Source of the DNA: a virus | IMG/VR virus record: IMGVR_UViG_3300045988_129218 | Reading direction: 5' to 3' (one strand) | DNA length: 64,000 bases | Shown here: in pieces, positions 8,953 through 50,012 of the stretch | Layout: each line of letters begins with the position of its first letter | How positions within the stretch are numbered: the first letter of the stretch is position 1 | The notes under the pieces: generated by a model | Seen by the model: only the letters and a program-made list of their open reading frames with translations | What the model was told of the DNA's origin: nothing | Database searches by the model: none | Position numbers and translations under genes: made by a program

Positions 8953-9171
8953 TTATTCATTCCAGTTCTTCTTGCAGAACTGCTGCTTGAGGACAAGTTC
9001 CACGCCGAGGGTAGACACATGGCAGGTTTCGATGAGGAAATCGCCGTAGGCCATCAACTCAAGGCCGTTCTTGGGGTTAAAGGGAACGCTGCAAGAGCCG
9101 AAGGTGAGTTCGATATTGGGCTTGATACCGTCGCCAAGCTCCAGCATGGCGCACGCTTCAAGGACTGTCAT
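8953..9171 (-). CDS. Conserved hypothetical 72-aa protein (paralog of 13911-14129)
   Basis: GGAGG RBS. MTVLEACAMLELGDGIKP...AYGDFLIETCHV shared with the second copy, including an identical 5' leader GGTATATGTACCTCC. Confidence 0.55.
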   Translation of the reverse strand: MTVLEACAMLELGDGIKPNIELTFGSCSVPFNPKNGLELMAYGDFLIETCHVSTLGVELVLKQQFCKKNWNE

Positions 9172-9246
9172 GGTATATGTACCTCCCGAAAGTATAATTT
9201 TGAATGGTGCGGAGGGGAGCGGCAAACTCCCCTCCGCGTGGCGCCA

Positions 9247-10059
9247 TCAGCAGGCGGGGGCGCGATCCATAATGGCGGTGATGCCGCGGGCGGTCAGGAT
9301 CTCGTGGATCATGAGCCGTCCCTTCTGCGTCCACTGGGTCTGCATTTTGGTGTCGGGCCGACCGTCGGAACGGACAAACCGGATGGTCTTGGACTTGGTG
9401 TAGCCCTTGCCCATGTGGCGCTTGTAGAGGAGCCACTGTCCGTTGACGTTGTACTGGATGCCCTCCTCATGGAGAATCTTGTTGAGGGCGCGGGCGCTCA
9501 TTTCGTAGTCGGCGGCGATCTGCGAGGTCGCCAGCGCGTCCTTGCTCTCCAGTATGGTGTCCACATACTGCCGGATGGGTTCAAAGTCGGCGATGACCTG
9601 CGCCTGCCGATGGTTCTCGGCCAGCAGTTTCAGCTTCTGCTCCTCGGCGTCGGCAAGGGCGCGGAGGGCGGAGGGGTAGTCCTGCGGCATCATGTAGCCG
9701 CCGGTCTTGCGGATGCTGGGAAGAACTTCGGACGTTACCCAGCGCTTGAACTTCTTGGCGGTGGAAAGTTTGCTGGAAAGCACCAGCGAGTACAGGCCGC
9801 TTTCGTTGATTGCCGTAACGTCTCGCTTTTGACCTGCACTGTCAATTTGGCAGACCAGTTTATCTTCATCATCAACATGCTTTTTAAGCGCTCCAAATGC
9901 GTCCGCATACCCAAGCGCCGTTGCCACGTCTTTACCCACAAACCACGGTTCTCCGTTGATCTCGATGGTGCGGATGCTACCGAACTCCTCATTCTGGAAC
10001 ACCTGCATCTGGTTTTCGCTGCTGCTGTTCATGGCGATTTTGGTACAATCAAAACTCAT
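9247..10059 (-). CDS. Phage antirepressor (Bro-N + KilAC domains)
   Basis: QVFQNEEFGSIRTIEINGEPWFVGKDVATALGY (Bro-N) plus a C-terminal KilAC-like half. AAGGAG RBS. Confidence 0.8.
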   Translation of the reverse strand: MSFDCTKIAMNSSSENQMQVFQNEEFGSIRTIEINGEPWFVGKDVATALGYADAFGALKKHVDDEDKLVCQIDSAGQKRDVTAINESGLYSLVLSSKLSTAKKFKRWVTSEVLPSIRKTGGYMMPQDYPSALRALADAEEQKLKLLAENHRQAQVIADFEPIRQYVDTILESKDALATSQIAADYEMSARALNKILHEEGIQYNVNGQWLLYKRHMGKGYTKSKTIRFVRSDGRPDTKMQTQWTQKGRLMIHEILTARGITAIMDRAPAC

Positions 10060-10218
10060 TTTGTGTCTCCTTATACCACAGAAATTATTTTGAGTACCCC
10101 TTCAATTAAAATTTTTGTTGACCTCCGGGAAGTTTGGCCATATAATAGATTTGACCGCTTCGCGGTGGTCGTTTGGATAACGGTTTGCTGACTATCTTGC
10201 AGGAAGGGCAGCAGACCG

Positions 10219-10413
10219 TTATTTCTTTATCTTGCCGTGTTGTTCCTCAATTCCCTTGCGGACGATCTCCGATCTGGACAGGTTTTCCACTTTGCAGCAC
10301 TCGTCCAGTTTTGCGAGGGTCGGTTTGTCCAACCTTACGCGGAGCATATAATCTTTCGCGTTGTCGGATTTGGGGCGGCCTTTCGGTGCAACCAAATTCA
10401 AACCTCCTTTCAT
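10219..10413 (-). CDS. Ribbon-helix-helix (CopG-like) small DNA-binding protein
   Basis: GRPKSDNAKDYMLRVRLDKPTLAKLDECCK pattern. Analogous ORF at 16183-16350. Confidence 0.55.
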   Translation of the reverse strand: MKGGLNLVAPKGRPKSDNAKDYMLRVRLDKPTLAKLDECCKVENLSRSEIVRKGIEEQHGKIKK

Positions 10414-10425
10414 GTTGCTACGCTA

Positions 10426-10454
10426 AATATATACCGTAGCAACAAAAATGTCAA
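10426..10454 (-). promoter_or_regulatory. Sigma-70-type promoter
   Basis: TTGACA-N17-TATATT read on the minus strand, upstream of the RHH gene. An inverted repeat TGCTACG..CGTAGCA overlaps the -10. Confidence 0.5.
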
Positions 10455-10618
10455 GAACTTTTTTCAGATTTTTTCTCCGCCAGCTCCACGGTGTCGGGAA
10501 TGAGCAGGCGGGCGGCGGCTTCGGACTCCGCCTCGATGAGCATGACGAACTCCGCGCCGTCCCGCTTGCGGCGGACGGTGAAGGGATATTCGCGCTTTAT
10601 AACATTGGTGACGAGCAT
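10451..10618 (-). CDS. Hypothetical protein (55 aa)
   Basis: Internal ATG with AAGGGGGA RBS. Abuts the stop of the upstream gene. Confidence 0.35.
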   Translation of the reverse strand: MLVTNVIKREYPFTVRRKRDGAEFVMLIEAESEAAARLLIPDTVELAEKKSEKSS

Positions 10619-10622
10619 GGGG

Positions 10623-10901
10623 TCATTCCCCCTTCTGCATATTCTCCACGGAGAAGGTGAAGCGGATCGTGGTTTCGCCGGCGGCCATGTAAATGCTGTC
10701 GGAGAAGGAGCACAGCGTGGCAAATACCGATTTCGCCGTACCGTCCAACGCGGCGGGGTGGGGTAGCTCCAAAGCCACGGAGGCGTGGGTGCTGTCGCTC
10801 TGAGGATCAGTGGATGAAACAGAGGCGGCGAAGCTCTTGGCGAGATCGGCGGTGTCCTTGAGGGCGAGGTACTGCTCCAGTTTTTTGGGATTCATAGACA
10901 T
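10623..10901 (-). CDS. Hypothetical protein (92 aa)
   Basis: AAGGAGG RBS 7 nt before the ATG. Confidence 0.45.
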   Translation of the reverse strand: MSMNPKKLEQYLALKDTADLAKSFAASVSSTDPQSDSTHASVALELPHPAALDGTAKSVFATLCSFSDSIYMAAGETTIRFTFSVENMQKGE

Positions 10902-10936
10902 GTGGATTTCCTCCTTGTGGATTTTTGTCGTAGTAT

Positions 10937-10966
10937 AGTCTACCGGCAAATGCGGATTTTGTGCAA
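10937..10966 (-). promoter_or_regulatory. Promoter (TTGCAC-N18-TAGACT) with TAGTCTACCGG operator-like box
   Basis: Read on the minus strand. Near-identical 35-nt block recurs at 23967-23996. Confidence 0.45.
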
Positions 10967-10990
10967 GGGATTTGAAAAAATTTTCAGAAT

Positions 10991-12049
10991 TTAACCGCGG
11001 CGGAGTGCGGGGACAATATCGGCGATGATGCTGGCGGCCTCGGATGCCTCGGCGAGGGTGTTGTACCAGTCGAAGGAGAAGCGGATGGTCTCAAGTGCCT
11101 GCTGCTCGGTAAGGCCGCTGGCCATGAGGTTGGCGGAGGCGGCGTTGTCACCGCTGGAACAGGCGGAGCCGGTAGACACCATGACGCCGTTTTCGCTGAG
11201 TGCGGCGGCGAGGGCAGCGCCGTAGACGCCGGGGAAACGGATGGAGAGGATGTGGGGAGCGCAATCCTTGCTGCTTTTGCCGACGGGCAGATTGATGTCG
11301 AAATCCACACGGTGGCAACCAAGGGAAATGATAAGCTCCTGAGCGACGGCGCGGATAGCTTTCTCGTTTTCCTCCATGTGTAGGGAGCGCCAGGTGAGGG
11401 CGGCGGCCATAGAGCTGACAAGGGGGACGGAGACCGTGCCGCCGCGCATACCGCGCTCCTGTGCGCCGCCGAAGATCATAGGGGCTACGGGACAGCCGCG
11501 GCGGACGATGAGTGCACCGATGCCCTTGAGGGAACCGAACTTGTGGCCGCCGAAAGCCATGTAGTCCGCACCCAGCGCCTTGAAGTCCACGGGGATGTGG
11601 CCTACGGCGGCGGTGGCGTCAAGGCCGATGCGGTGCGGACGGTTTTTACGGCAGAAAGCTGCCACGTCGCTTATCTGCCCGGTTTCATTGTTGACGAGGG
11701 ATAGGATGGCGGAGGGCTTGCCGTGGGTAGCGATGGGCACGAGGTATGACCGGGCAGCCTCGCTGACGGCGTGGTGAACGGTGTCATTGTAGTTGATGGC
11801 GTCGGTCTCCAGCCGGAGGCATCTGACCATCCAGTTGCAAGCTTCGGTGGCGCCGGAGGTGAAATACACCTCGTCCGGTTCGCAGTTCAGTTTGTCGGCG
11901 ATGATGGCACGGCAAGATTCCAGTTCGGCCTTGGCCTCGCGCCCAACGGCGTGTGCGCTGGAAGGGTTGCCGAAGATGGCGCACTGTGTGGCGGCACCAA
12001 ATGCGCCGGGAACTGGCGGCGTGGTAGCGGCATTGTCGAAGTAGATCAT
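10991..12049 (-). CDS. Cysteine desulfurase (class V aminotransferase, NifS/IscS-like)
   Basis: IYFDNAATT, GGHKFGSLKGIGAL (PLP lysine), SxGSACSSG (catalytic Cys). AAGGAG RBS at the internal ATG. Confidence 0.85.
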   Translation of the reverse strand: MIYFDNAATTPPVPGAFGAATQCAIFGNPSSAHAVGREAKAELESCRAIIADKLNCEPDEVYFTSGATEACNWMVRCLRLETDAINYNDTVHHAVSEAARSYLVPIATHGKPSAILSLVNNETGQISDVAAFCRKNRPHRIGLDATAAVGHIPVDFKALGADYMAFGGHKFGSLKGIGALIVRRGCPVAPMIFGGAQERGMRGGTVSVPLVSSMAAALTWRSLHMEENEKAIRAVAQELIISLGCHRVDFDINLPVGKSSKDCAPHILSIRFPGVYGAALAAALSENGVMVSTGSACSSGDNAASANLMASGLTEQQALETIRFSFDWYNTLAEASEAASIIADIVPALRRG

Positions 12050-12185
12050 GTTAGTTTTCTCCTTTTCGTAAGAAGTTTCGCAAAGTGTGTCTTTGGTTAT
12101 TTGTTGTGTTTTTGCAAAGCGTGTTATGTTTTTCACTGGCCGAGTTTGCATATTTGCCGATATTCAAAACGCAACGAAAATATAG

Positions 12186-12223
12186 TTTACAAAACAAGCC
12201 GGAGGGCGGTGTGCCGTCCGGCT
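12186..12223 (-). terminator. Rho-independent terminator after HU
   Basis: AGCCGGA...TCCGGCT hairpin followed by TGTTTTGT on the minus strand. Confidence 0.5.
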
Positions 12224-12261
12224 CGTAATGTGGGATATTTTGTATGGCTGCGGATGGCGCG

Positions 12262-12537
12262 TCAGCTGTTGACGGCATCCTTGAGCTGTTTTGCGGGCTT
12301 GAAGATGGCCACGCGCTTAGCGGGGACGGTGATGACCTCACCGGTAGCGGGGTTCTTGCCGGGGTGCGCGTCGCGGACCTTGCTGGTGAAGATGCCGAAG
12401 CCGGAGATACTCACGCTGTCGCCGGAGCGCATGACGCCGGTAAGGGTGTTGGCAGCGGCGGCGATCACGCGCTCGACGTCGGACTTCTTCATGTCGGTCG
12501 CTGCTGCCAGAGTGGAAATAAACTCGCTCTTGGTCAT
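12262..12537 (-). CDS. hup: HU-family DNA-binding protein
   Basis: 91 aa. GFGIFTSKVRDAHPGKNPATGEVITVPAKRVAIFKPAKQLKDAV is the HU arm and C-terminal signature. Confidence 0.9.
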   Translation of the reverse strand: MTKSEFISTLAAATDMKKSDVERVIAAAANTLTGVMRSGDSVSISGFGIFTSKVRDAHPGKNPATGEVITVPAKRVAIFKPAKQLKDAVNS

Positions 12538-12595
12538 GGAATGTGCCTCCTTTCTGTTGTAGATTTTAGACTGAAACGTTTTATCGCCTTGCGGC

Positions 12596-12671
12596 TGGTG
12601 GGAGATCGGGGACTTGAACCCGGAACCGGGCCGTTATGAGCGGCCTGCTCTGCCGATTGAGCTAATCCCCC
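12596..12671 (-). tRNA. tRNA with CAU anticodon (Met or Ile2), CCA encoded; C50.C64 mismatch in T stem
   Basis: Hand-folded cloverleaf: GGGGGAT/ATCTCCC acceptor, loop CTCATAA, T loop TTCAAGT. Confidence 0.7.
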
Positions 12672-12839
12672 GTATGTGGGCGGCGCGGCTGCCCAGACCG
12701 CACCGCCCATCGAAAGGAGATTGGCCTGCCTGTATTCCAACAGGAGCCGGGGAAAATGAACAAAACCCGGTGCTGCTTCTTACAGCCGCAGCATATTGAG
12801 GAACTCTGCTACGAAAGCGGGGCGTTTGTGCGTCCCTTG

Positions 12840-12940
12840 TGCGGGAGGTGGGAATCGAACCCACGGAACGGCGACGCGCAAAAACGGAACAAGTTTTAGG
12901 AGGGACATTTGTTTTGCCGTTCGCCCCCTGGCGCCCCCGC
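12840..12940 (-). ncRNA. 101-nt tRNA-like element: intact acceptor, class-II-like D arm and T arm, but no canonical anticodon arm
   Basis: GCGGGGG/CTCCCGC acceptor. GCC-AGGGGGCGAAC-GGC D arm. GTGGG-TTCGATT-CCCAC T arm. The 50 nt in between do not fold into a 5-bp stem with a 7-nt loop. Confidence 0.5.
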
Positions 12941-12996
12941 ATAGAGAGTGGGGGAGGACGGTCTGGGGGATGCCCGCCTCCCCGATGGGGGTGGGT

Positions 12997-13068
12997 AGGG
13001 CGCGGTCGGAGTCGAACCGGCGTTTCCCTGCGGTCAAACAGGGCGTTCTGCCGTTGAACTACGCGCCC
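12997..13068 (-). tRNA. Aberrant tRNA: 8-nt anticodon loop UUUGACCG, C50.A64 T-stem mismatch, no encoded CCA
   Basis: GGGCGCG/CGCGCCC acceptor. GTTC/GAAC D stem. CCCTG-TTTGACCG-CAGGG. T loop TTCGACT. Confidence 0.5.
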
Positions 13069-13234
13069 GTAGTCGGGAGGAGGAAAGGTGGGGGGACCTC
13101 CTCCCGATGAGGTGGGGCGTTCCTTCGTTCGCTGTCACGCCCAAATCGTGCTACCGGCTGGTTCGACCCGGCGACACCGCTGCCAGACGCGGAGGTTTCA
13201 TTCCTGACGGGGGAAGTCATCCATCAGGCGGGCA

Positions 13235-13311
13235 TGGAGCAGCGTAGCGGATTTGAACCGCCACCCCCAGTTTGGAAGACTGGTGTGCTGACCGTTGAAC
13301 ACTAACGCTGC
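13235..13311 (-). tRNA. tRNA-Gly(UCC)
   Basis: GCAGCGT/ACGCTGC acceptor, loop CTTCCAA, T loop TTCAAAT, U73, CCA encoded. Confidence 0.85.
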
Positions 13312-13480
13312 ATGGGTGCTCGTCTTTCCGAGCCGCCAGATCTTTTCCGTGCCTCGCTTTTGCCAGCAGATCACAGGCGCAATTACAACATCGAGGCTTG
13401 AGGGGCTTACTTCAGGACTTCGCATCACCCATACGGCTGTTCCGCTAAAACGCTCGTCACTCGCGGTGTCCACGTAGAAT

Positions 13481-13555
13481 TGGCACAGACGGCTGGATTT
13501 GAACCAGCGAATGAGGGAGTCAAAGTCCCTTGCCTTACCGCTTGGCTACGCCTGC
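13481..13555 (-). tRNA. tRNA-Gln(UUG)
   Basis: TAGCCAAGCGGTAAGGCA D region. AGGGA-CTTTGAC-TCCCT. GCTGG-TTCAAAT-CCAGC. CCA encoded. Confidence 0.85.
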
Positions 13556-13700
13556 ATGGTTTTCCCCTGCGCGAACTGCCCGCGAGATGCCGGGTTCGTT
13601 GCCGCGAATTGACCGGCACAGCTCCTGCTTACGGGGCGGAGCTTATCTAAACCTGAAGGGGCCTCTGCGCCGTTAGGGGGTGTCCCCTTCGGCAATTTTA

Positions 13701-13722
13701 AGTATGCGCCCCGTGTCAAGGG
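13701..13722 (-). promoter_or_regulatory. Island motif cccTTGACAcgg-N4-CATACT heading the tRNA array
   Basis: Minus-strand read. Preceded by CTGAAAATTTTTTCAAA, an A/T tract also present at 10970-10986. Confidence 0.5.
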
Positions 13723-13749
13723 AACTTCTGAAAGTTTTTGAAAAAATTT

Positions 13750-13914
13750 TCAGGTGTTGTATCCCTCACGGAAGCTGCCGCATTTTGTGTGGAACTCTAC
13801 CACATAATAGCGGCGCAGAGGGTGGATGTAGATCACTTTGCCGGTGGCCTTTTTCTCGGTGTCGGCGATACAGCGGGTGACGGTATCTTCCAGTTGAATG
13901 TTGGAGGGGATCAT
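13750..13914 (-). CDS. Hypothetical protein (54 aa; below the ORF-track cutoff)
   Basis: Own translation MIPSNIQLEDTVTRCIADTEKKATGKVIYIHPLRRYYVVEFHTKCGSFREGYNT. ATGA start/stop overlap with the upstream gene. Confidence 0.4.
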   Translation of the reverse strand: MIPSNIQLEDTVTRCIADTEKKATGKVIYIHPLRRYYVVEFHTKCGSFREGYNT

Positions 13915-14129
13915 GCTGCGCCGCCTTTCTTGCAGAACTGCTGCATGAGGACAAGCTCCACGCCGCCCTCCCAGACGTGGCAGGTTTCAATAAGAAAATC
14001 GCCGTAGGCCATCATCTCAAGGTCGTTTTGTGGGCTGAACGGAACGCCGCTGGAGCCAAAAGTGAGTTCGATCTTGGGCTTCACGCCGTCGCCGATGTCA
14101 AGGACGGAGCAAATTTCGCGGACTGTCAT
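13911..14129 (-). CDS. Conserved hypothetical 72-aa protein (paralog of 8953-9171)
   Basis: AGGAGG RBS. MTVREICSVLDIGDGVKP...AYGDFLIETCHV. Confidence 0.55.
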   Translation of the reverse strand: MTVREICSVLDIGDGVKPKIELTFGSSGVPFSPQNDLEMMAYGDFLIETCHVWEGGVELVLMQQFCKKGGAA

Positions 14130-14206
14130 GGTATATGTACCTCCTATTGTATAAATGGTGTATGATGTGAATGCTGGTATACAGGGTGCAATCAGGCGGC
14201 AACGCG

Positions 14207-14370
14207 CCGAATTTCGTCGGTCTGGTTGCAGCCGTCCAAAATGCGGACGGTTGGGATCGCCCGACGAAATTCGGCAGACGTTATATCGCTGTCCGAAATT
14301 CTGACGGCGTTTTTGCGGCGGTGAATTTCGTCGGCGCAAAAGGGGGTCAAGGCGTGTCCGCATTTCGGAC
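14207..14370. repeat. Interleaved repeat cluster in a 250-nt intergenic gap
   Basis: CCGAATTTCGTCGG at 14207-14220, inverted at 14261-14274, partial at 14323-14334. GTCC[A/G]AAAT[G/T]C[G/T]GAC at 14234-14248 and 14291-14305, inverted at 14356-14370. Confidence 0.6.
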
Positions 14371-14379
14371 GCGCAGGGG

Positions 14380-14637
14380 TCAGCGCATACGGGAGGCGAC
14401 AAGCTGGGCGCGGTAGGCGCGGACGATTCCCTCGTAGAACCAGCGCAGTTTCTTTTCCTGCGAGATGACGTGAAGTTTGCTTATACGGCGGCATTCGGCC
14501 ACGGTAGCACCGCCGCGGCGTATACGCGCTTGCAGATTTTTCTGCCGGACGCTGAGGTTGACACCACCCAGTTTTTCCAATTCGGCGTACATCTCACCGA
14601 TGGTGGTATGGTAGTTGAGACCGTATTCCTCACACAT
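14380..14637 (-). CDS. Hypothetical protein (85 aa)
   Basis: ORF directly downstream of the Rha gene. Protein-like composition. Confidence 0.4.
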   Translation of the reverse strand: MCEEYGLNYHTTIGEMYAELEKLGGVNLSVRQKNLQARIRRGGATVAECRRISKLHVISQEKKLRWFYEGIVRAYRAQLVASRMR

Positions 14638-14670
14638 CTGACGGATGGTGTGGTTGATGTCCTCTTTCCA

Positions 14671-15183
14671 TTACTCTGCATCAGAGGTAGAGGGACGGGT
14701 GATAGCAGAAAGTGTCTGGTTCACCATCGTGCGTGTTTCCTGCTGCTGGGTGGTCAGTTCAGCGATCTGCTTTGCCTGCTGCTTTTGCTGAAGCTCCATC
14801 TTGATGATGGCGCGGGCCTCGTAGGACAGGGCGGAGAAGTCTGCCTCGGTCAGGCCCTGCTGCTGGGAGCGCAATTCCTGCTCCATGGCATTAAAGGCGC
14901 TGATGTACTTCATCTTCCACGTCAACGCTTCCTTGCCGGTAAAGCCCATAGCGAGGAGGGTGAAGCCGTCGCGGTTCATAAGGTACATGGGGTACTCCTG
15001 CCCATTCTGCGGGTGGATGTAGGTGGTTTTGAAGAACATGGGGGTATGCTCAAAATTGGGCAGACCCCCAATCAGATTCTCGATGTCACGTAGGACGTTC
15101 TTGTGTTCCTTGCCGAAGTGCTCCACAATGTCGCGGCTGCTGGCAGTGGGCTGGCCGTTGCTGATGGTGATAAGGTCATTCAT
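14671..15183 (-). CDS. Rha-family phage regulatory protein
   Basis: ITISNGQPTASSRDIVEHFGKEHKNVLRDIENLI matches the Rha N-terminal signature. Confidence 0.75.
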   Translation of the reverse strand: MNDLITISNGQPTASSRDIVEHFGKEHKNVLRDIENLIGGLPNFEHTPMFFKTTYIHPQNGQEYPMYLMNRDGFTLLAMGFTGKEALTWKMKYISAFNAMEQELRSQQQGLTEADFSALSYEARAIIKMELQQKQQAKQIAELTTQQQETRTMVNQTLSAITRPSTSDAE

Positions 15184-15228
15184 CTGTGAAAATCTCCTTT
15201 CGGCTTATTAGTGGATATGCTCGAACCG

Positions 15229-15963
15229 CTATGCTTTCAGCGAATTAGGCGTGTGTGCTGCGTATCGGTTCAGGAAGTACCGCTGCCCGGCGGGCGTCAC
15301 AGTTGTAACGCGGTCGATGATGCCGCTTTCCTTTGTGAAGCGGGGCGTTTCCTTGACGAAGAACAGCCCCATTTCCATGGCTCTTTGTGTCGGCATATTG
15401 TAGTCGCTGCCGCCCTTGATAAGAAAGCCGTCGTTGCGAAGCGTCCAGTAGAACCGCTTTTCTCCAGTGTCCACGCCGTTTTGCTTGAGTAGCTTCGCCA
15501 TGTCGCGGACGAGGATGTTCGTGTCGCAGCCCGTAATGGCGTTTGCAAATCGGACGGCGGGAGCGTCCTCCTCGATTTTCGCTTGCAGACCCTTGATTTT
15601 GTCGCTGGCAATCTGCAAAGCCCGCGCCATGACCTTTTCGGGGCTGTTCCACTCCTTTTCAAGCTGGATGAAGTATTGCCGCGCCTGCTTGCCCTTTTCG
15701 CTGCGCTGGAGCATACAAATCTCTTTCGCCATTTCGATGGTGATTTCCGCGTCCTTCCGGGGCTTGCCGGGTAGTCCGTCAACCCTATTGCGGAAAAATC
15801 CGCAATAGTCTTTTCCCTCTTCAAAGCCGTAATCACACATCCGGGGAAACCAGTCTTTGAAGTGGTCTTTTACCTCAAGGGCTGCGTGCAGGTCGCGTGC
15901 CGATACCGTGATACGGTCAGGGCTGTCTACATTTACAGGGACGAGCTGTTCGAACTTTGTCAT
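15229..15963 (-). CDS. Antirepressor (AntA/AntB N-terminal + KilAC C-terminal domains)
   Basis: ITVSARDLHAALEVKDHFKDWFPRMCDYGFEEGKDY (AntA-like). NILVRDMAKLLKQNGVDTGEKRFYWTLRNDGFL (KilAC-like). Confidence 0.75.
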   Translation of the reverse strand: MTKFEQLVPVNVDSPDRITVSARDLHAALEVKDHFKDWFPRMCDYGFEEGKDYCGFFRNRVDGLPGKPRKDAEITIEMAKEICMLQRSEKGKQARQYFIQLEKEWNSPEKVMARALQIASDKIKGLQAKIEEDAPAVRFANAITGCDTNILVRDMAKLLKQNGVDTGEKRFYWTLRNDGFLIKGGSDYNMPTQRAMEMGLFFVKETPRFTKESGIIDRVTTVTPAGQRYFLNRYAAHTPNSLKA

Positions 15964-16002
15964 AGTCTTGTTTCCGCCTTTCTATGGTCGTTGGTAGTCG
16001 GT

Positions 16003-16024
16003 ATAGTACCAGCCGTGTCAAGGG
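16003..16024 (-). promoter_or_regulatory. Island motif cccTTGACAcgg-N4-TACTAT
   Basis: Minus-strand read, ~40 nt upstream of the AntA-type gene start. Confidence 0.5.
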
Positions 16025-16182
16025 ATTCCGAAGGCGAATTTCCAAAAATGAGCGCAAAAATCCCCTGCGGAAAGCTGTTGACTTTCGCAGGGGCGGCGTC
16101 TATAATAAGATTTAGACGGCACCCGTGCGGTGCTGGCGGAAAGCAGGGCGCTAATCTTTGGTCGGATGGAGCGCTCTGCTTT

Positions 16183-16350
16183 TTATTTACCCGGAAGCAG
16201 CATGATACCGTCGCGGATGCCCTCCGTGCGTTTCTTGCCGGTACGTTTGCAATATTCGTCCAGAATTGCCAGCGTTTTATCGTCAAGTCGGACGTGGAGG
16301 GGATTGGACTTCGGATTTTCAGCTTTCGGGCGTCCTGTGCGTGGACTCAA
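16183..16350 (-). CDS. Ribbon-helix-helix small protein (55 aa; below the ORF-track cutoff)
   Basis: Own translation (TTG start after GAGGTG): SPRTGRPKAENPKSNPLHVRLDDKTLAILDEYCKRTGKKRTEGIRDGIMLLPGK. Parallels 10219-10413. Confidence 0.5.
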   Translation of the reverse strand: MSPRTGRPKAENPKSNPLHVRLDDKTLAILDEYCKRTGKKRTEGIRDGIMLLPGK

Positions 16351-16384
16351 ATTATTCACCTCACTTTATGTAGCCCATAAATTT

Positions 16385-18905: not shown

Positions 18906-20789
18906 TCACATTCCGGGGAGTGCCACAAGGGCGCTGCCGGAGGTGATGAGCATGGACGGGTCGGCGATGGTCTTTTCGTAGCTGTCCGCACCCTGGAAAT
19001 CATCAATGACGGCCTGTTCTTCGGCGGTCATGTCGGCGTAGTGCTTTTTGCCGTAGGTGGGCGGCAGCCAGTTCTTTTTCTGACCGGCAAAGATGTTCAG
19101 ACGGTCGATGATGCGGGACGCCTCCGGCTTAAACTTGATGTGGCAGGTACCCTTTTTGTAGAAGGTGCAGGTAAAATAGGTGAAATCCGCCTTGTTGGTG
19201 TAGGCTTCGTTGGCGATGCGGACGGCGCGATCTATGGGTGTGTGGAAAGTAGTTTCGCCGCGGTCCAGATAGTTCATTGCCCGCTCCAAGTCGGATATGA
19301 GGCAGTTTACCCGCCAAGCGTCCAGACCGCCCCCATAGGTGGCGTGGCAGCCGTTGGAGGGGATGATGACCTTCATACCCACTTTGTGGGCCTTGTTCGT
19401 CGCCCAGCCGTTATAGTAATGGATGTTGTTGGCGCACTCCGGGTACCAGCTGTGCTTGGCGGAAAACTGCTCGAACAGGTCGAGGATGGAATCCTCCACG
19501 CCGCGGGAGAGCTGGTGGGCGATCTCGCGCATGACAGTCTCGATGTTGTACCGGGAGAAATCGTACTCGGAGAGAGATTCAACTTTACTATTGTAATCCT
19601 GCTGCATGGCGGAGGTCATTTTCTCTGTGAGCTCCGGGCGGCGCAGGAGGTTCCCCCAATACTTGGCGCGGAGACCGAAAAGGTAGCTGTTCAGGATGGT
19701 GGCGTTGTTGCCGGTGTTCCTGCTGCCCACCTTGAGGGACAGGAGGGGTTCTCCGTGATCTTTGCCGGGGTCCATGTAGGGACGGAGGGCGGCGAACTCG
19801 TTGATAAGCTTTTCGCCCAGGGCGGCCTCGAAGTTATATCCATCGATCATGTTCTGCAGCCAGTCGGCGGAGGCAAGGTCGGTGGCCTGTTCGCTGTTTT
19901 CGGTGCTGTTCTCGCTGGCGCGGCGCAGGGAGGAAAGAATATCGCTGGGGATTTCTTTTTTCGGTATGTTCACATAGACCAGCGCGATCTCCACGTCGGT
20001 GGGGCGCTGGGCATGGCGGAAGGCGTTTTCAATGAACTCAATGCGGGCGTTGTGTTCGTGCAGTTTCTGCACAAGCACTTTTCGCCGGTTGGTGTAGGGA
20101 TTGCGGATGGTTTCCGCGTTCAGAAGACACACGATCTGACCGCCGCGCTCCATGAGGGAAAGTGCGTGCAAAAGGTGTTCGTCGCCGTTGTCAAAGGGCG
20201 GATTCATAATGCAGAGGTCATATTGCTTGCGGGTGTGAAAGGTGAGAAAATCGTCGTGGACCACAAGCAGCCCTTTTCCGCGCAGAAGGGCGGCAAGGTC
20301 GCTGTCGCGCTCGATGCAGTCTATATAGGGTTCTCGCTGGTGGATAAACACGCGGCGGCTGTTTCTGGTATCATTCACGAAGCGGGAAACGGCGTCGGCA
20401 AGGTCGCCTTTACCGGCGGAGGGTTCGAGGATAGAAAAAACATTTTTCCAGTCCACGCAGGAGAGCATTTTCCCCGCCAGTTTGGAGGGCGTGGGGTAAA
20501 AGCCGCTGTTGCTGAAGGACGGCAGGCGGCGGAGATCGGCGGCGGCGCTGTTCGGCACGATGGCGCCGTTCTCGCTGTACCAGTCGCGGATCTTCTTTTT
20601 CGCTCCGGCGATGGTGGAGGCGCGGCCCAGATAGTCGCCGCGGTCGTCGTCGCCGGTGGTGGCGCTGACGATGTACTCATTTTTGCCGTAGTAGGAGCTG
20701 GGCTTAATCTCGGCGATCTGGGAGCCGTGGGCAAATACGGCGATGTGTTCATCTCCGAAGCGGTTTTTTTCGGTGTGGTAGGTAAACAT
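18906..20789 (-). CDS. Orphan SAM-dependent DNA methyltransferase (N6-adenine type) with long C-terminal extension
   Basis: ILEPSAGKGDLA (motif I) and DLCIMNPPFDNG (motif IV). No adjacent restriction endonuclease recognised. Confidence 0.75.
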   Translation of the reverse strand: MFTYHTEKNRFGDEHIAVFAHGSQIAEIKPSSYYGKNEYIVSATTGDDDRGDYLGRASTIAGAKKKIRDWYSENGAIVPNSAAADLRRLPSFSNSGFYPTPSKLAGKMLSCVDWKNVFSILEPSAGKGDLADAVSRFVNDTRNSRRVFIHQREPYIDCIERDSDLAALLRGKGLLVVHDDFLTFHTRKQYDLCIMNPPFDNGDEHLLHALSLMERGGQIVCLLNAETIRNPYTNRRKVLVQKLHEHNARIEFIENAFRHAQRPTDVEIALVYVNIPKKEIPSDILSSLRRASENSTENSEQATDLASADWLQNMIDGYNFEAALGEKLINEFAALRPYMDPGKDHGEPLLSLKVGSRNTGNNATILNSYLFGLRAKYWGNLLRRPELTEKMTSAMQQDYNSKVESLSEYDFSRYNIETVMREIAHQLSRGVEDSILDLFEQFSAKHSWYPECANNIHYYNGWATNKAHKVGMKVIIPSNGCHATYGGGLDAWRVNCLISDLERAMNYLDRGETTFHTPIDRAVRIANEAYTNKADFTYFTCTFYKKGTCHIKFKPEASRIIDRLNIFAGQKKNWLPPTYGKKHYADMTAEEQAVIDDFQGADSYEKTIADPSMLITSGSALVALPGM

Positions 20790-23933: not shown

Positions 23934-23966
23934 TTTATAACACCTCTTTCCGGGCGGCCTGCTTAT

Positions 23967-23996
23967 AGTCTACCGGCAAAACCGCTTTTTGTGCAT
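23967..23996 (-). promoter_or_regulatory. Promoter (ATGCAC-N18-TAGACT) with TAGTCTACCGG box
   Basis: Same 35-nt block as at 10937-10966. Confidence 0.4.
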
Positions 23997-26383: not shown

Positions 26384-26405
26384 CCCTTGACACGGCGATT
26401 AGACT
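26384..26405 (+). promoter_or_regulatory. Island motif cccTTGACAcgg-N4-TAGACT followed by ACCGG (operator-like box)
   Basis: Plus-strand read, ~60 nt upstream of the 26463 ATG. Confidence 0.5.
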
Positions 26406-26882: not shown

Positions 26883-26952
26883 ATCGACGGTGAGCCGAAG
26901 CATACAGCGCGGCAAGAAAAAACTGCAGGACTACCTTCAGTTCTGCCTATGA
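26671..26952 (+). CDS. Sigma-70 region-4-like HTH regulator (93 aa)
   Basis: LSKLPEKQRMYLLAYYSEHLTMEQLAERFGVNKSTVSRSIQRGKKKL. Confidence 0.65.
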   Translation: MPRETVMENLLGVQRFRDETAEDNAERLLRLKRKLPAALSKLPEKQRMYLLAYYSEHLTMEQLAERFGVNKSTVSRSIQRGKKKLQDYLQFCL

Positions 26953-28046
26953 TGGGAGTTGGAACGAGATACATGGGACGGATAAACCAGCCGCTGACGA
27001 ATGAGGCGGCACGAAAACTGATGGCGTTGGACGTGCAGGACAAGGAGATACTGACTTACGAAAAGCTGGACGAATGGTATACCGCATGGGGCGGACAGTG
27101 CTACGTCAGTTTCTCCGGCGGAAAGGACAGCACAGTGCTGGCGTATCTGGCGGCGCGGTACCTGTCGAGCTTCAGGACACCGCCGTGGGAGCTGAATCTG
27201 GTGTTTGTGAACACTGGGCTGGAATACCCTGAAACTCAGAAGTTCGTGAATGAGTACGCCGCGTGGCTGCGGAGGGAGTTTCGCCGCGTGACTGTCGATC
27301 TTGTCCGCCTGCGTCCGAAGATGAACATACGGCAGGTTGTGACGAAGTACGGGTACAGCATCATCGGTAAAGACGTAGCGCACCGGATAGAAACCGCGCG
27401 GCGTTCACCAGATAGCCGAAGTATGAAGCTATTGCGAGGGGAAGTCTTACGCGCCGATGGGGAAAAGAGTATGTACAACTGCGAAAAGTGGGGGTATTTA
27501 CTTACGGCGCCGTTTCTCATCTCCGACAGGTGCTGCGGGATTATGAAAAAGTCCCCAGCAAAGAGCTATGAGCACCGAGCGGCTGTCAAGCCCATGACGG
27601 CAACAATGGCGGAGGAAAGTCTTTTGCGGATGCAAAAATGGCGCGAAACCGGCTGCAACGCCTTTGAAGGAAGGCGTCCCTTATCTAAGCCCATGAGTTT
27701 CTGGACGGAGCAGGACGTGCTGCGGTTTATCGTGGAGTGCCAACTACCCTACGCCAGCGTGTACGGAGACATCGTAGCCAGCGACGGCGAGAACGACTAC
27801 GGCGCAACGCTGATCGACTGCAATCTGCACTGCACGGGATGCCAGAGGGGGGGCTGTATGTTCTGCGCGTTCGGTGCGCATCTCGAAAAAGGCGTCAACC
27901 GATTCCAGCGGATGAAACTGACGCACCCGAAGCACTATCAGTTCTGCATCGGCGGCGGCGCATTTGACACGGACGGGCTGTGGAAGCCCACCAAAGACGG
28001 GCTTGGTTATGCGCGGGTGCTGGACTACATCGGAGTGAGGTATTGA
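26949..28046 (+). CDS. PAPS-reductase-family (PP-loop ATPase) protein with Cys-rich C-terminal domain
   Basis: SFSGGKDS PP-loop. CNLHCTGCQRGGCMFCAFG cluster. ATGA overlap with the upstream stop. Confidence 0.8.
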   Translation: MMGVGTRYMGRINQPLTNEAARKLMALDVQDKEILTYEKLDEWYTAWGGQCYVSFSGGKDSTVLAYLAARYLSSFRTPPWELNLVFVNTGLEYPETQKFVNEYAAWLRREFRRVTVDLVRLRPKMNIRQVVTKYGYSIIGKDVAHRIETARRSPDSRSMKLLRGEVLRADGEKSMYNCEKWGYLLTAPFLISDRCCGIMKKSPAKSYEHRAAVKPMTATMAEESLLRMQKWRETGCNAFEGRRPLSKPMSFWTEQDVLRFIVECQLPYASVYGDIVASDGENDYGATLIDCNLHCTGCQRGGCMFCAFGAHLEKGVNRFQRMKLTHPKHYQFCIGGGAFDTDGLWKPTKDGLGYARVLDYIGVRY

Positions 28047-28398: not shown

Positions 28399-28981
28399 TT
28401 TACAGGCGAGCCGCATAGCGGGCGGAAACAGCGCGATTGGCAGAAGGGAGTCGGATTTTTGCCCGACGCCGCCGGAGGTAACGGTGGCGCTGCTGGATTT
28501 CCTCCGTCTGCCGGAGAACACGGTGATCTGGGAACCGGCGGTGGGCGAGGGGGATATGCTGGAGACGATCAGGGCGTGCGGGTACGGTGAGTCGTTTGGG
28601 ACGGACATATCCGAAGGATTTGACTTTTTAAGCCCGGATATATTCAAGCGGTTGTTTGTTGGCTTTGACTGGATCATCACAAACCCGCCCTTTGCGCTGG
28701 CGGAAGAATTTATCCGCAAGGCGGCGTCTTTGGGCAAGCCATTTGCATTTCTGGTGAAGTCACAGTTCTGGCACGCGAAACGCCGCTTATCTTTGTTTGA
28801 TGAGTTCGCGCCCAGTTACATTCTGCCCCTGACATGGAGGCCGGACTTCTTTTTCAAGGACGGCCACGGCGGCAGCCCATTGATGGATGTGATGTGGTGT
28901 GTTTGGCTCATGCCGCACATTAAGGGAACGCAGACGGTGTACAGACCGTTGGAACGACCGAAAGGAGAGATAGAAACATGA
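28388..28981 (+). CDS. Small N6-adenine DNA methyltransferase
   Basis: VIWEPAVGEGDML (motif I) and DWIITNPPFA (motif IV). Confidence 0.7.
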   Translation: MMDSLQASRIAGGNSAIGRRESDFCPTPPEVTVALLDFLRLPENTVIWEPAVGEGDMLETIRACGYGESFGTDISEGFDFLSPDIFKRLFVGFDWIITNPPFALAEEFIRKAASLGKPFAFLVKSQFWHAKRRLSLFDEFAPSYILPLTWRPDFFFKDGHGGSPLMDVMWCVWLMPHIKGTQTVYRPLERPKGEIET

Positions 28982-29478
28982 GCGTATGCGGAAGATGCGG
29001 AAAGAACTTTGATGCGACAACTTCCGGTTCAATTCTTTTCTGCCCGGACTGTTGCCGAGAGATTGGGTGGGGCGGTTTTCAGCGCCTTGAAATTCTTGAA
29101 AAGTCTGTTGATAAGTCAAAAGCGGCAGTGATGGGCGGTATCAAGGACAGCGGGGAGCGTACCACCTTCAGCACTGGGGCGCAGCGGGATATGCACAGCG
29201 GGAAAGGCCGCATGGATCTTCTCCCGTGGGCGGCGATCATCGAGGTAAGCAAGCACTGTGAGGCCGGCGCGCTCAAGTACGGGGTGCATAACGTCGATAA
29301 AGGGATACCCACCAGCAGTCTGCTGGACAGTGCCATGCGACACGCGGCGAAGTATCTGGACGGACAGGAGGACGAGGATCACCTGCTGGCGGCGGCGTGG
29401 AACCTGCTGTGGGCAATCGAGATGCGCTGCAAAAAGCCGGAGTGCGTAGATACGCCGTGGAAGGAGGAAAAGGCATGA
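28978..29478 (+). CDS. Zn-ribbon + DUF5664-like (dATP/dGTP diphosphohydrolase N-terminal-like) protein
   Basis: GKGRMDLLPWAAIIEVSKHCEAGALKYG...DHLLAAAWNLLWAIEM resembles the phage DUF5664 signature. Recalled from memory, not searched. Confidence 0.5.
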   Translation: MSVCGRCGKNFDATTSGSILFCPDCCREIGWGGFQRLEILEKSVDKSKAAVMGGIKDSGERTTFSTGAQRDMHSGKGRMDLLPWAAIIEVSKHCEAGALKYGVHNVDKGIPTSSLLDSAMRHAAKYLDGQEDEDHLLAAAWNLLWAIEMRCKKPECVDTPWKEEKA

Positions 29479-33180: not shown

Positions 33181-33206
33181 GGTCGGAGTGGGGGGACTTG
33201 AACCCC
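33180..33206 (-). other. tRNA 3'-end fragment (T arm + acceptor + CCA); candidate att core of prophage P2
   Basis: Minus strand GGGG-TTCAAGT-CCCCC-CACTCCG-A-CCA. The upstream sequence does not fold as an anticodon or D arm. Confidence 0.6.
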
Positions 33207-33257
33207 TGAAAAACGGCTTAAAAACCGCATGAATACAGAGTTTGTTTTTTGCGTATT

Positions 33258-33277
33258 GAAATTCATATCGAAAATTA
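33258..33277. repeat. GAAATTCATATCGAAAATTA (direct-repeat copy 2), overlapping the integrase stop codon
   Basis: Exact 20-nt match to 33025-33044. Confidence 0.7.
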
Positions 33278-34429
33278 TCTCTTTTGTTCTTGGTTTGTGC
33301 CTTGGGCGGCGGGAAGTTTCTCTGCGGTACGGTAGAATTTCGCCATCTTGTTTTCCGCTTTCAGACGGTCTCGCTGGGCAAGGTGCAGGTAAATGTTATG
33401 GACGGTAGAACTATCCGACCATCCTCCCATGCTCATGACTTCGATTTCCGAAAGGCGCAGGTGGTAGCCAAGGGATGCAAAGGAGTGGCGCAAGCAGTGC
33501 TCCGTGATGCTGGGCAGTCCTGCTTTTTCAGCGATAATGTGTATGTGCCGGTTAATGGTGCTGGGCATTTGTCGTACAATGTAGCCGCTCTCCCCTTGCA
33601 GCTCAAGCAACTCTCTAAGGCGTGGGATCATGATTGGAATTATTCTGGTGGACTGCTTTGTTTTGTTGCGCCTTTTGAAAACCTCTTTGTTGTGCTCGTC
33701 GCGTACCACAGCGCCGGAAATAAGAATGTTGCCGTTCTTGATGTCAAAACTCTCTGGGAAACGCAGCGCCTTAATTTCAGACATTCGCAACCCGTGAAGC
33801 CCCAGCAGCATGGGGATCTCACAGGAATCACCTTTTGCCGCATCGCAAAACGCAATGATCTGTTGCGGGTCAAGAAACTGGCGCTCGCGCTTTTCCGGCA
33901 CAGGGAACAGGACGCGGGGAACCGTCATTTCGTTTGCTTGCATAACGGTAGTCATAAGTCCCCATGCGTTTTTTACGGACTTATCGGCCAGAACGGAAAG
34001 TGCGGCATTGATCTCCGCTTGCCAGTTGACTGGCGTGCTTATAGGCTTTTGCATAATGTCCTGAAAGCGATTTCGCTGAATGATTCGGTATCCTCGTATA
34101 GTTTCAGGGGAAAGAGACTCGGAACGGTCAGCAATATATTGATCTATGGCCTTAGACCATGTTAAGGCAGGCAGTTTCTTTTGCTGCTCCACAAAACCTG
34201 CGCGGACGGCTTTTGCTTTCGCAATACAGCGGTCTTTTGTCGTTTCGGTGACAGATCGCTTTTCCGCAGCGAGATATATGTGCCAGCTTCCAGAGGGGAG
34301 CTGCTTAGGCTCCGGGACTTTGATAATACCGTCCTTTTTGCGCTCCCGCACCTGCTTCTGGCCGCACCAGGGGCAGAACGTAGCGTTGTCGGGGACTTCG
34401 CGCTTACAGGACTTGCACTTCGTTGACAT
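33275..34429 (-). CDS. Tyrosine integrase with N-terminal zinc ribbon
   Basis: CKSCKREVPDNATFCPWCG. LRMSEIKAL, HCLRHSF, GGWSDSSTVHNIYLH catalytic signature. Confidence 0.9.
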   Translation of the reverse strand: MSTKCKSCKREVPDNATFCPWCGQKQVRERKKDGIIKVPEPKQLPSGSWHIYLAAEKRSVTETTKDRCIAKAKAVRAGFVEQQKKLPALTWSKAIDQYIADRSESLSPETIRGYRIIQRNRFQDIMQKPISTPVNWQAEINAALSVLADKSVKNAWGLMTTVMQANEMTVPRVLFPVPEKRERQFLDPQQIIAFCDAAKGDSCEIPMLLGLHGLRMSEIKALRFPESFDIKNGNILISGAVVRDEHNKEVFKRRNKTKQSTRIIPIMIPRLRELLELQGESGYIVRQMPSTINRHIHIIAEKAGLPSITEHCLRHSFASLGYHLRLSEIEVMSMGGWSDSSTVHNIYLHLAQRDRLKAENKMAKFYRTAEKLPAAQGTNQEQKR

Positions 34430-36061: not shown

Positions 36062-36274
36062 ATGGGAGATGAGAGATTGAGTTATAAGGAGCAAAGAAAG
36101 AAAGCCGGATATTCGCAGAAAACGGTGGCAGATCTGCTGGGGATAAGCGTTTCAGCGGTGAGCCTTTATGAGACAGGCAAGGCTGATCCTTCGGTGGCAG
36201 TTCTGCACAAGCTGTCTGCGCTGTACCGCTGTACGCTGGACGAGCTGATGAAGGGGGAGGGCAGAAAGAAATGA
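36062..36274 (+). CDS. Cro-like XRE HTH regulator (start uncertain: 36059 TTG, 36062 ATG or 36077 TTG)
   Basis: RKKAGYSQKTVADLLGISVSAVSLYETGKADPSVAVL. Confidence 0.65.
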   Translation: MGDERLSYKEQRKKAGYSQKTVADLLGISVSAVSLYETGKADPSVAVLHKLSALYRCTLDELMKGEGRKK

Positions 36275-49716: not shown

Positions 49717-50012
49717 CACGCGAGGAGATCATAACCGCGCTGCGGTGCTGTGCAGACATTGATGGCGAATTTGAGTGCAGTACAACCTGCGCGTTTTTCA
49801 AAACGAGCGACGAACTGGGCGACTGCTGCACAAAGAAAAATGTTGCCGCCGCTGACCTGATCGAGAACCAGCAGCGGCACATCGAGGCACTGATGAAAGC
49901 CAACGACAGCCTGAAGGACGCCATTGCACGGCGGGATAAGCAGATAGAGGACATGAATCAGGGCATGGCACAGCTGGCAAAGGCTGTGGCGGTGAAGGAG
50001 GAACAGAAATGA
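49713..50012 (+). CDS. Hypothetical protein (99 aa)
   Basis: ATGA overlap. Cys-rich N-terminus and coiled-coil C-terminus. Confidence 0.45.
   Translation: MTREEIITALRCCADIDGEFECSTTCAFFKTSDELGDCCTKKNVAAADLIENQQRHIEALMKANDSLKDAIARRDKQIEDMNQGMAQLAKAVAVKEEQK

Follow-up and report, generated by a model that had tools for sequence, protein, structure and literature searches.

A 64,000-nucleotide stretch of viral DNA, IMG/VR record IMGVR_UViG_3300045988_129218 (the whole stretch is referred to as the window), carries on its minus strand a block of tRNAs and protein genes at positions 10991–13722. Read leftward, the block comprises a promoter-like motif, tRNA-Gln(UUG), tRNA-Gly(UCC), an aberrant tRNA, a longer tRNA-like element, tRNA(CAU), the gene of an HU-family protein, a terminator-like hairpin and a cysteine desulfurase gene. 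These parts, their order and their common strand had been listed in an earlier note on this DNA, and all of them are confirmed by ARAGORN, Rfam, Pfam or RNA folds. The block is a conserved accessory module of an uncultivated lineage of temperate Caudoviricetes from the human gut, and the long stretches between its tRNAs are conserved structured RNAs with compensatory base changes. We read it as a phage operon of tRNAs and non-coding RNAs, in which the canonical tRNAs compensate for codon usage, HU serves as an architectural protein and the desulfurase is a general supplier of persulfide; taken as a whole, this reading has in our estimate about an even chance of being right.

The phage origin of the block follows from its distribution. 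A scan of IMG/VR with the window desulfurase provided 62 loci, ranging from 97% to 44% identity, and HU together with a co-oriented tRNA array was present in every one of them that has enough upstream DNA. The order array, HU, desulfurase, integrase recurs in all informative IMG/VR phage loci and is kept across clades whose desulfurases are only 34–45% identical; for the majority of sister phages, the integrase is the immediate neighbour of the block. HU is 95–99% identical within clade 1 and 35–45% between clades. A third clade, found via the RNA motif described below, retains the order RNA motif, tRNA-CAU, HU and desulfurase at 34–35% (desulfurase) and 35% (HU) identity. Among 50,697 GenBank phage records, a close homolog of the desulfurase was found in MT835520.1 only. 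Between 7.9 and 62.4 kb of the window, this unannotated 58 kb scaffold from human faeces runs collinear with it and has the same block adjoining its integrase, with the tRNAs CAU, Gly and Thr(CGU). Behind the integrase, metagenome contigs invariably show lysis and tail genes in convergent orientation. Searching 185,579 species-representative genomes resulted in three matches, two of which were phage-like contigs of metagenome-assembled genomes (MAGs) with the same block. The third was an iscR-iscS-iscU housekeeping operon with neither HU nor tRNAs nearby; its desulfurase, at 31% identity, was the closest cellular homolog detected. The earlier note had considered that the block could be chromosomal DNA caught between two related islands. 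This is refuted, as every integrase-bearing relative with upstream DNA (that is, every locus with a homolog of the window integrase int1) has the block, and no syntenic chromosomal locus was found among the 185,579 genomes. Its other suggestion, cargo of a mobile element located behind a motif that is repeated ahead of other operons, is borne out, the element being a temperate phage. The host is probably a high-GC bacterium of the Clostridia, with Oscillospirales as candidate. Clostridia and Eubacteriales were the only labels on the MAG contigs matched in the species-genome scan, and the nearest named phage as judged by DnaB is Flavonifractor phage Cormatin, at 32%.

The stretches between the tRNAs measure 169, 166, 56 and 169 nt, followed by 58 nt from tRNA-CAU to the HU start. 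They had been described as unusually long spacers. The lengths stand, at 56–169 nt, but comparing the array with all loci by BLAST showed these stretches to be conserved as widely as the tRNAs themselves. The first one is a structured RNA of 169 nt with seven helices (13312–13480, minus strand), for which RNAalifold provided 31 pairs, eight with compensatory double changes. In the alignment 99% of the cells are paired, and the covariation amounts to 0.255 as compared to 0.111 in shuffled alignments, none out of 500 reaching the observed value and slid controls staying at or below 0.035; much of this signal stems from a few between-clade events. A set that includes clade 3 repeats the result, with pair 6–48 appearing as AU, CG and GC. 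In sister arrays, a module located behind tRNA-Thr or behind a tRNA-like unit matches this RNA at 98% identity. The RNA identity is still 82–83% for clade 2 and 75% for clade 3, compared to 34–45% for the proteins. A covariance model detected one copy each in 35 of the 62 desulfurase loci, always on the tRNA strand, and an invariant 27-mer is present without mismatch in 41 IMG/VR contigs.

The other stretches behave similarly. The first part of the second one (13113–13234) is a four-hairpin RNA with 29 pairs, three of them compensatory, found in nearly all clade-1 loci. A conserved GC-rich leader hairpin (12941–12996; fold z = −4.3) precedes the long tRNA-like RNA, and the fourth stretch (12672–12840) is a multi-hairpin RNA with 41 pairs, seven compensatory, that ends in a 13-bp hairpin 5 nt before tRNA-CAU; all three are on the minus strand. 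The GC-rich hairpin noted earlier before each tRNA is strong at tRNA-CAU (13 bp), the aberrant tRNA (11 bp) and the tRNA-like RNA (10 bp), where it stops 4–10 nt short of the respective unit, but it is reduced to 5 bp before tRNA-Gly and is weak before tRNA-Gln. These hairpins are the 3′-terminal helices of the structured modules, and several occur per array just upstream of tRNA 5′ ends.

Several established explanations for such sequences were considered and rejected. No Rfam family matched the structured modules or the gap between HU and desulfurase at E ≤ 5, which speaks against a riboswitch or leader in that gap and against a known RNA family in the spacers. GOLLD and ROOL are large phage RNAs located beside tRNA genes; neither these nor the ribozyme of hepatitis delta virus (HDV) had an Rfam match in the arrays searched. 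A rough custom descriptor for theta- or HDV-like ribozymes identified no double pseudoknot within 5 nt of the tRNA 3′ ends in the window and in the sister loci L002 and L034. Spacer peptides are likewise dismissed, as the sole open reading frame (ORF; 13198–13473) crosses tRNA-Gly and has no ribosome-binding site, and as substitutions follow the pairing and not a codon periodicity.

Two units of the array are tRNA-shaped and non-canonical. The first belongs to an inserted cassette (12997–13112, minus strand) consisting of an 11-bp leader hairpin (TCGGGAGGAGG/CCTCCTCCCGA) and the aberrant tRNA proper (12997–13068). The latter scores 49 bits in Rfam and, as judged from ARAGORN and Rfam, has an 8-nt anticodon loop (‘tgac’), a T-stem mismatch and no CCA; a role in decoding is improbable. 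Most sister arrays lack the cassette, which is thus an insertion compared to them and was seen in only about six loci. The second is the long tRNA-like RNA of 100 nt (12841–12940, minus strand), recognised from folds and from alignments to sister loci. Its acceptor stem of 7 bp is free of mismatches and its T-arm is a canonical one of 5 bp; between them are a short D-like hairpin and an extended central arm. Its tail reads ACAA. The element is a short version of a 120–148-nt RNA found in nearly all clade-1 arrays, and these orthologs usually end in TCCA. There was no match to the Rfam tRNA model RF00005, and the tRNA-Sec model scored 21.5 bits compared to a gathering score of 47. With this score and no UCA, CUA or UUA loop, an identity as tRNA-Sec or suppressor was rejected. 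The first unit of clade-2 arrays is an RNA of about 100 nt in the shape of tRNA-Sec, and its score of 31 bits is also below the gathering score of 47.

In sister arrays, a further tRNA-shaped family of 72–91 nt was identified, with the arms GCAGACGTAGCTCAG…GGTTCRA…CGTCTGCACCA and an ACCA tail (e.g. L002 4593–4665, L008 3738–4046, L165 at about 4774, and many other sister loci). In this chassis, the acceptor, D and T arms stay constant around at least ten unrelated central cassettes. Clades 1 and 2 have one of these in identical form, CCGCGCCAGGAGGTATG, which includes AGGAGG. ARAGORN mostly misses these RNAs or assigns them odd anticodons, and Rfam scores them at about 50 bits as tRNA. The window has no RNA on this GCAGACG scaffold beyond the acceptor stem of its tRNA-Gln, which is of the ‘GCAGRCG’ type and is combined with normal Gln D and anticodon arms.

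The three canonical tRNAs are all on the minus strand and encode CCA: tRNA-Gln(UUG) at 13481–13555 (64 bits), tRNA-Gly(UCC) at 13235–13311 (42 bits) and tRNA(CAU) at 12596–12671 (57 bits). All were called by ARAGORN, exceed the RF00005 gathering score of 29 and have a 7-nt anticodon loop of ordinary appearance. tRNA-Gly(UCC) is present in 36 of 36 clade-1 arrays. The tRNAs of the lineage include CAU, CGU (Thr), UCC (Gly) and CCC (Gly), Thr-CGU and Gly-CCC being found in sister phages. The positional ortholog of tRNA-CAU in locus L155 is about 90% identical and has the anticodon UAU; because of this ortholog and the enrichment of ATA in late genes, tRNA-CAU is probably a tRNA-Ile2 that would read AUA. 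Codon usage was compared between late genes (0.1–7.9 and 51–62 kb) and the left arm of the phage (7.9–23 kb). The share of ATA among Ile codons is 31% in late genes as opposed to 4% in the left arm (p = 8e-13); for ACG among Thr codons the shares are 44% and 18% (p = 3e-10), and for GGG among Gly codons 23% and 10% (p = 3e-5). All three codons are almost unused in HU and desulfurase. In general, late genes are rich in G at the third codon position, and the left arm, HU and desulfurase are rich in C, a split that suggests a mosaic origin of the two parts of the phage.

The HU/IHF-family DNA-binding protein (91 aa; 12262–12537, minus strand) matches PF00216 over residues 1–90 with 93.7 bits (8e-27; threshold 22.4). 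Its gene is preceded by the strong ribosome-binding site AAAGGAGG. The HU-beta and IHF-beta models score 72 bits each, below their cut-offs of 157 and 115. The gene is followed by a hairpin and T-run resembling an intrinsic terminator (12190–12224, minus strand), identified by its fold; a consensus scan missed it because the stem is bulged.

The desulfurase (351 aa; 10991–12046, minus strand) is a class I enzyme of the NifS/IscS type, with 147.7 bits for PF00266, the class V aminotransferase family (6e-43; gathering threshold 21.5). Its true start is the ATG at 12046, behind an AAGGAG ribosome-binding site. The best solved relatives are the NifS-like protein of T. maritima (1ecx, 2.6e-44) and IscS; DndA (3vax) and SspA (6m4j) are also among them. 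The motifs HHA (with the histidine stacking on pyridoxal phosphate), NNETG, GxHKF (with the lysine that binds this cofactor), SxGSACxS (with the catalytic cysteine) and RFS are invariant across clades. Moreover, GGHKF, HHAV and STGSACSSG align to 1ecx and 4isy and are invariant in 13 divergent homologs. The enzyme is thus predicted to be catalytically intact. After HHAV, a gap of about 21 alignment columns is common to the phage copies without exception and is not found in the cellular homolog. This suggests that the gene was acquired once, long ago, and that the phage enzymes form a subfamily of their own, kept by purifying selection. The scores remain far below the NCBIfam equivalog cut-offs for NifS (TIGR03402, 195 of 531 bits), IscS (TIGR02006, 155 of 643) and DndA (TIGR03235, 171 of 480), and the matching family PHROG 12787 has no annotated function. 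In comparison with housekeeping NifS/IscS and with DndA/SspA, fold family and catalytic residues are the same. The phage enzyme is, however, about 30 residues shorter and has the shared deletion after HHAV, and no IscU, NifU, IscR, MnmA, ThiI or Dnd partner (DndC–E) is adjacent. Its neighbours are HU and two small conserved ORFs on the minus strand (10451–10949), one of about 92–108 aa (10623–10949) and one of 55 aa (10451–10618). These accompany the block in clades 1 and 2 and have no match in Pfam, NCBIfam, PHROG or PADLOC.

Upstream of the array, the promoter-like motif CCTTGACACGG (13721–13711) is followed by a −10-like TACTTA/TAAAAT (together 13695–13723, minus strand). The window has five copies of CCTTGACACGG, at 13721, 16023, 20849 and 22973 on the minus strand and at 26385 on the plus strand, preceding the array and four other operons. 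Each has a −10-like hexamer (TAnAnT) 4–6 nt further on and is located 40–60 nt upstream of a start codon or of the array. BLAST of the array against the loci showed the region 13681–13760 to be kept in more than 50 related loci. Based on the shared motif and the conserved upstream region, the array is probably co-regulated with the four other operons. The motif may be an operator, or a promoter read by one of the sigma-like proteins of the phage (24129–24944 or 26602–26952). A sigma-70 reading of what had been called an island promoter was rejected, as the geometry is a misfit and a consensus scan made no call. The leader of the array transcript (13556–13700, minus strand), delineated by its fold, is kept in only 10–13 loci.

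Combining these data, the following sequence of events is proposed. The array would be read leftward from the phage-specific promoter or operator motif, giving a non-coding polycistron of about 1.2 kb, a succession of tRNAs and tRNA-shaped RNAs with structured RNAs in between. At the tRNA-shaped units, RNase P and the processing of tRNA 3′ ends would cut the polycistron into discrete RNAs. As indicated by the codon statistics, the CAU tRNA (probably tRNA-Ile2), Gly-UCC and Gln-UUG, joined by Thr-CGU and Gly-CCC in sister phages, would decode codons that are far commoner in late structural and lysis genes than in host-like genes. HU would be translated from the array transcript, which is presumed to end at the terminator, and, judging from its family, the protein is probably architectural for phage DNA in replication, recombination or packaging. 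The desulfurase most likely raises the persulfide supply of the infected or lysogenic cell via host IscU, ThiI, MnmA or Fe–S enzymes. It is read as a general sulfur-mobilising auxiliary gene because Gln tRNAs are few, no thiouridylase was among the proteins scanned, the PP-loop gene of the phage is not co-conserved, one related RNA locus is free of the enzyme and no defence genes are nearby (see below); nothing indicates dedication to the tRNAs it travels with.

Several observations weigh against this reading. The canonical tRNAs fit codon compensation, but the support is partial: ‘host-like’ codon usage is a proxy taken from the left arm, HU and desulfurase and not from the host itself, the codons AGG, TCG, GCG, CGG and CCG are equally enriched in late genes with no phage tRNA to match, and CAA, the codon of the Gln tRNA, is not enriched there. 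Codon compensation also leaves the non-canonical tRNA-shaped RNAs and the conserved structured RNAs unexplained. In four of the five motif copies TTGACA is only 7 nt away from the −10-like hexamer, a non-canonical promoter geometry. Finally, array, HU and desulfurase stay strictly co-linear in deeply diverged phages, a hint that they are functionally linked.

The unexplained RNAs are the starting point of the strongest alternative, which we regard as possible rather than probable, namely a tRNA-punctuated operon of new functional RNAs whose purpose is the RNAs and not translation, and on or with which HU and/or the desulfurase could act. Its more specific version is held tentatively. Here, the main products of the array would be non-coding RNAs, the tRNA shapes would mainly provide punctuation for RNase P and 3′-end processing as well as stabilising handles, and the RNAs would act on the host, for example as regulators or as decoys or inhibitors of tRNA-targeting immunity. 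The conservation of the 169-nt RNA across clades (75–95% identity, compared to 34–45% for the proteins) fits this version, as do its single copy per array, its constant strand and its position directly between tRNA-shaped units. The chassis RNAs keep the top half that is read by RNase P and the CCA machinery, leaving the anticodon arm free to vary. Moreover, the RNA module occurs in a further setting. In IMGVR_UViG_3300029555_000012 (locus L197), a different and smaller phage of 41 kb and one of the 41 contigs with the exact 27-mer, the 169-nt motif and a scaffold tRNA-like unit (2597–2847) lie directly upstream of the small and large terminase genes, and HU and desulfurase are absent from the 14-kb locus examined. 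A precedent exists in polycistrons of irregular, possibly non-translational tRNAs (PMC5389517). Still, the 169-nt motif is missing from 27 of the 62 desulfurase loci, the GCAGACG scaffold is represented in the window only by the tRNA-Gln acceptor stem, and the high nucleotide identity of the 169-nt RNA could partly reflect recent exchange of cassettes between phages and not constraint.

The link between sulfur and tRNA proposed in the earlier note fares less well and is considered unlikely. According to that model, the tRNAs replace or repair host tRNAs hit by anticodon nucleases, and the desulfurase supplies the sulfur for their thiolation, giving 2-thiouridine at position 34 (s2U34) or 4-thiouridine at position 8 (s4U8). 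Class I desulfurases are indeed the sulfur source for tRNA thiolation, as known for IscS, NifZ and YrvO, which was counted in favour of the model. The UUG-Gln tRNA of the window would be a natural s2U34 substrate, and the array is strictly co-linear with the desulfurase. Defences that target tRNAs can be neutralised by tRNAs of phage origin (PMC10264068, PMC11464382, PMC11555353). However, a tRNA-Gln is found in only three of about 34 clade-1 arrays and tRNA-Lys or tRNA-Glu in none, which leaves most of these arrays without the supposed s2U34 substrates, and the anticodon loops of the canonical tRNAs are ordinary. A thiolation or repair package is not supported either, as no MnmA, ThiI, TtcA, TtuA, RNA ligase or kinase was found in the block or among about 50 window proteins scanned with Pfam, which represent part of the window ORFs. 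The PP-loop protein of the phage (26949–28046) was detected in more than 600 phages, with the majority of the 80 loci listed lying outside the desulfurase contig set, and is missing from MT835520.1, which has the desulfurase. Locus L197, with the RNA array but no desulfurase in its 14 kb, also speaks against the link. Lastly, an anti-anticodon-nuclease package finds no counterpart in the left arm, where PADLOC identified no defence family save methyltransferase models, matching a 627-aa protein.

The same PP-loop protein, which resembles 3′-phosphoadenosine-5′-phosphosulfate (PAPS) reductases, enters a further alternative in which the desulfurase feeds a Dnd- or Ssp-type sulfur modification of the phage DNA. 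DndA is the second-best NCBIfam match of the enzyme, 3vax and 6m4j are among its solved relatives, and the phage encodes PAPS_reduct, Dam, a C5-methylase fragment, a Mom-like protein, a DUF4942 methyltransferase and a dGTP-diphosphohydrolase domain. We nevertheless regard this as quite improbable: the DndA score is far below its cut-off and NifS scores higher, no DndD, DndE or SspB/SspC homologs were detected among the proteins scanned, and the PAPS-reductase-like gene is not co-conserved with the desulfurase and is located 15 kb away on the other arm. An obligate pair of the two was rejected on account of the >600 phages and of MT835520.1. Least probable is a remnant of tRNA-dependent lysogeny or specialised transduction, with genes taken from the host beside attB and tRNAs that complement a tRNA gene destroyed on integration: the block adjoins a tyrosine integrase, tRNA-dependent lysogeny exists in actinophages (PMC10865867) and HU and desulfurase have host-like codon usage, but the likely attP is elsewhere, after the second integrase int2 (~33181–33212), where a tRNA 3′ fragment has T-arm, acceptor strand and CCA in full, so that integration would restore the host tRNA, and where this fragment matches no phage tRNA beyond the T-loop, no syntenic chromosomal locus was found in the species-genome scan, and any capture would be ancient given the derived deletion common to all phage desulfurases.

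The preferred operon is embedded in the following layout. Tail, holin and amidase genes occupy 0.1–7.9 kb, the leftward arm (7.9–23 kb) begins with the tyrosine integrase int1, and the rightward arm, from 24 kb, contains the sigma-like proteins, the PAPS-reductase-like protein, int2, YqaJ, a replisome organiser, DnaB, Dam, a C5-methylase-like and a Mom-like protein. Large ORFs that follow the Mom-like gene and have no Pfam match are taken as head genes based on their position. The second tyrosine integrase, int2 (33275–34429), has an N-terminal zinc ribbon, and the minus-strand tRNA 3′ fragment GGGGTTCAAGTCCCCCCACTCCGACCA (T-arm, acceptor strand and CCA; ~33181–33212) just downstream of it probably represents the phage attP. 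Collinearity between MT835520.1 and the window extends across this fragment. Both junctions, int1–lysis and int2–attP, are phage-internal, and the window therefore shows an unintegrated layout. A near-identical block with the int1–lysis junction was also observed in locus L071 (ENA ERZ27242328 k141_8906, 219,980 bp, phage region ~155–176 kb); this copy may be integrated with its ends elsewhere, or the contig may be an assembly chimera. The DNA-modification set of the phage is unusually rich (18906–20789, 26949–28046, 28978–29478, 47538–48122, 49270–49716 and 50009–50470); its members are a DUF4942/Dam-like methyltransferase, the PAPS-reductase/PP-loop protein, a dATP/dGTP diphosphohydrolase N-domain, the C5-methylase fragment, Dam and the Mom-like protein. 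A second pair of tRNAs, Trp(CCA) at 62322–62396 and Asn(GUU) at 62456–62531, is located on the plus strand in the late (head) region and is also found at the end of MT835520.1.

Repeats on both sides of the block had been reported as well. The 17-nt A/T tract TTTGAAAAAATTTTCAG has exactly two copies in the window, with 0.15 expected by chance, at positions that differ from those first given by 1–3 nt. Copy 2 (13737–13753) shares bases with the stop codon of orf54, a conserved 54-aa ORF, and is located a short distance upstream of the promoter-like motif. Copy 1 (10971–10987) is associated with the sigma-70-like promoter TTGCAC-N18-TAGACT ahead of the small ORFs (together 10934–10987, minus strand), and a near-identical copy of this promoter region is found at 23964–23995 (repeat family D5); the tract is a possible UP element of that promoter. 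The duplicated modules of a 72-aa ORF, an antirepressor and a ribbon-helix-helix (RHH) protein are real on both sides, with Pfam support and a repeat, D1, of 81% identity over 170 nt, but the left copy is an insertion limited to a few relatives. Comparing 8953–10413 with 13911–16359, the 72-aa ORF is duplicated and the antirepressor types differ, one side having Bro-N/ANT and the other Rha together with AntA/ANT; a further gene of the Bro-N/ANT type, the third, is located at 36271–37071.

Some features of the module have known counterparts. With the tRNA clusters of T4/T5-like phages and mycobacteriophages (PMC10264068, PMC11464382, PMC11555353) it shares co-oriented tRNA genes and the late enrichment of ATA, ACG and GGR. 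In contrast to these clusters, the phage is temperate, its only 3–5 canonical tRNAs are interleaved with structured and tRNA-shaped RNAs, and HU and desulfurase always follow. Intact acceptor and T arms combined with abnormal anticodon regions are also known from the polycistrons of irregular tRNAs and allo-tRNAs described by Mukai et al. (PMC5389517) and from tRNA-Other of Bacillus cereus (PMC3399842), and irregular tRNAs in polycistrons have been suspected of being non-translational (PMC5389517, PMC3399842). Unlike allo-tRNAs, which split 8/4 or 9/3, the 100-nt element of the window splits 7/5, and only the clade-2 element is tRNA-Sec-like. The context differs too, gut phages here and soil Acidobacteria with toxin–antitoxin genes there (PMC5389517). 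As for the theta (minimal HDV-like) ribozymes beside gut-phage tRNAs (PMC10879173), structured RNA directly 3′ of phage tRNAs in gut Caudoviricetes is the common feature; in contrast, the motif described here is 169 nt and the tRNAs mostly encode CCA, compared to only 4.5% of theta-associated tRNAs (PMC10879173). With regard to the protein genes, SPO1 TF1 is a phage-encoded HU homolog. Both proteins have the HU fold at about 90 aa and both belong to phages that modify their DNA heavily, whereas the HU described here ends a tRNA/ncRNA operon.

In summary, phage tRNA clusters, phage HU proteins and auxiliary metabolic genes are known, and the conserved structured RNAs and the tRNA-chassis RNAs are the more novel content of the module. 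At least three stretches that look like intergenic spacers are candidates for new RNA families, covarying, outside Rfam and placed between tRNAs in a context ready for processing. The hypervariable tRNA-chassis RNAs of the sister phages resemble the tRNA-scaffold trick of RNA engineering, and they call for caution in annotation, as ARAGORN misses most such elements and Rfam labels them plain tRNAs. Should the RNA-centred alternative be true, the RNAs could be, for example, decoys or inhibitors of host tRNA-directed immunity or manipulators of host translation. The cysteine desulfurase is a rare phage enzyme that is fixed in these genomes, and it provides a concrete case for asking why a virus brings a sulfur-mobilising enzyme. 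For the family as a whole, the module is a reproducible marker of a widespread, uncharacterised lineage of temperate gut phages of 40–90 kb, represented by dozens of IMG/VR contigs and many metagenome clusters.

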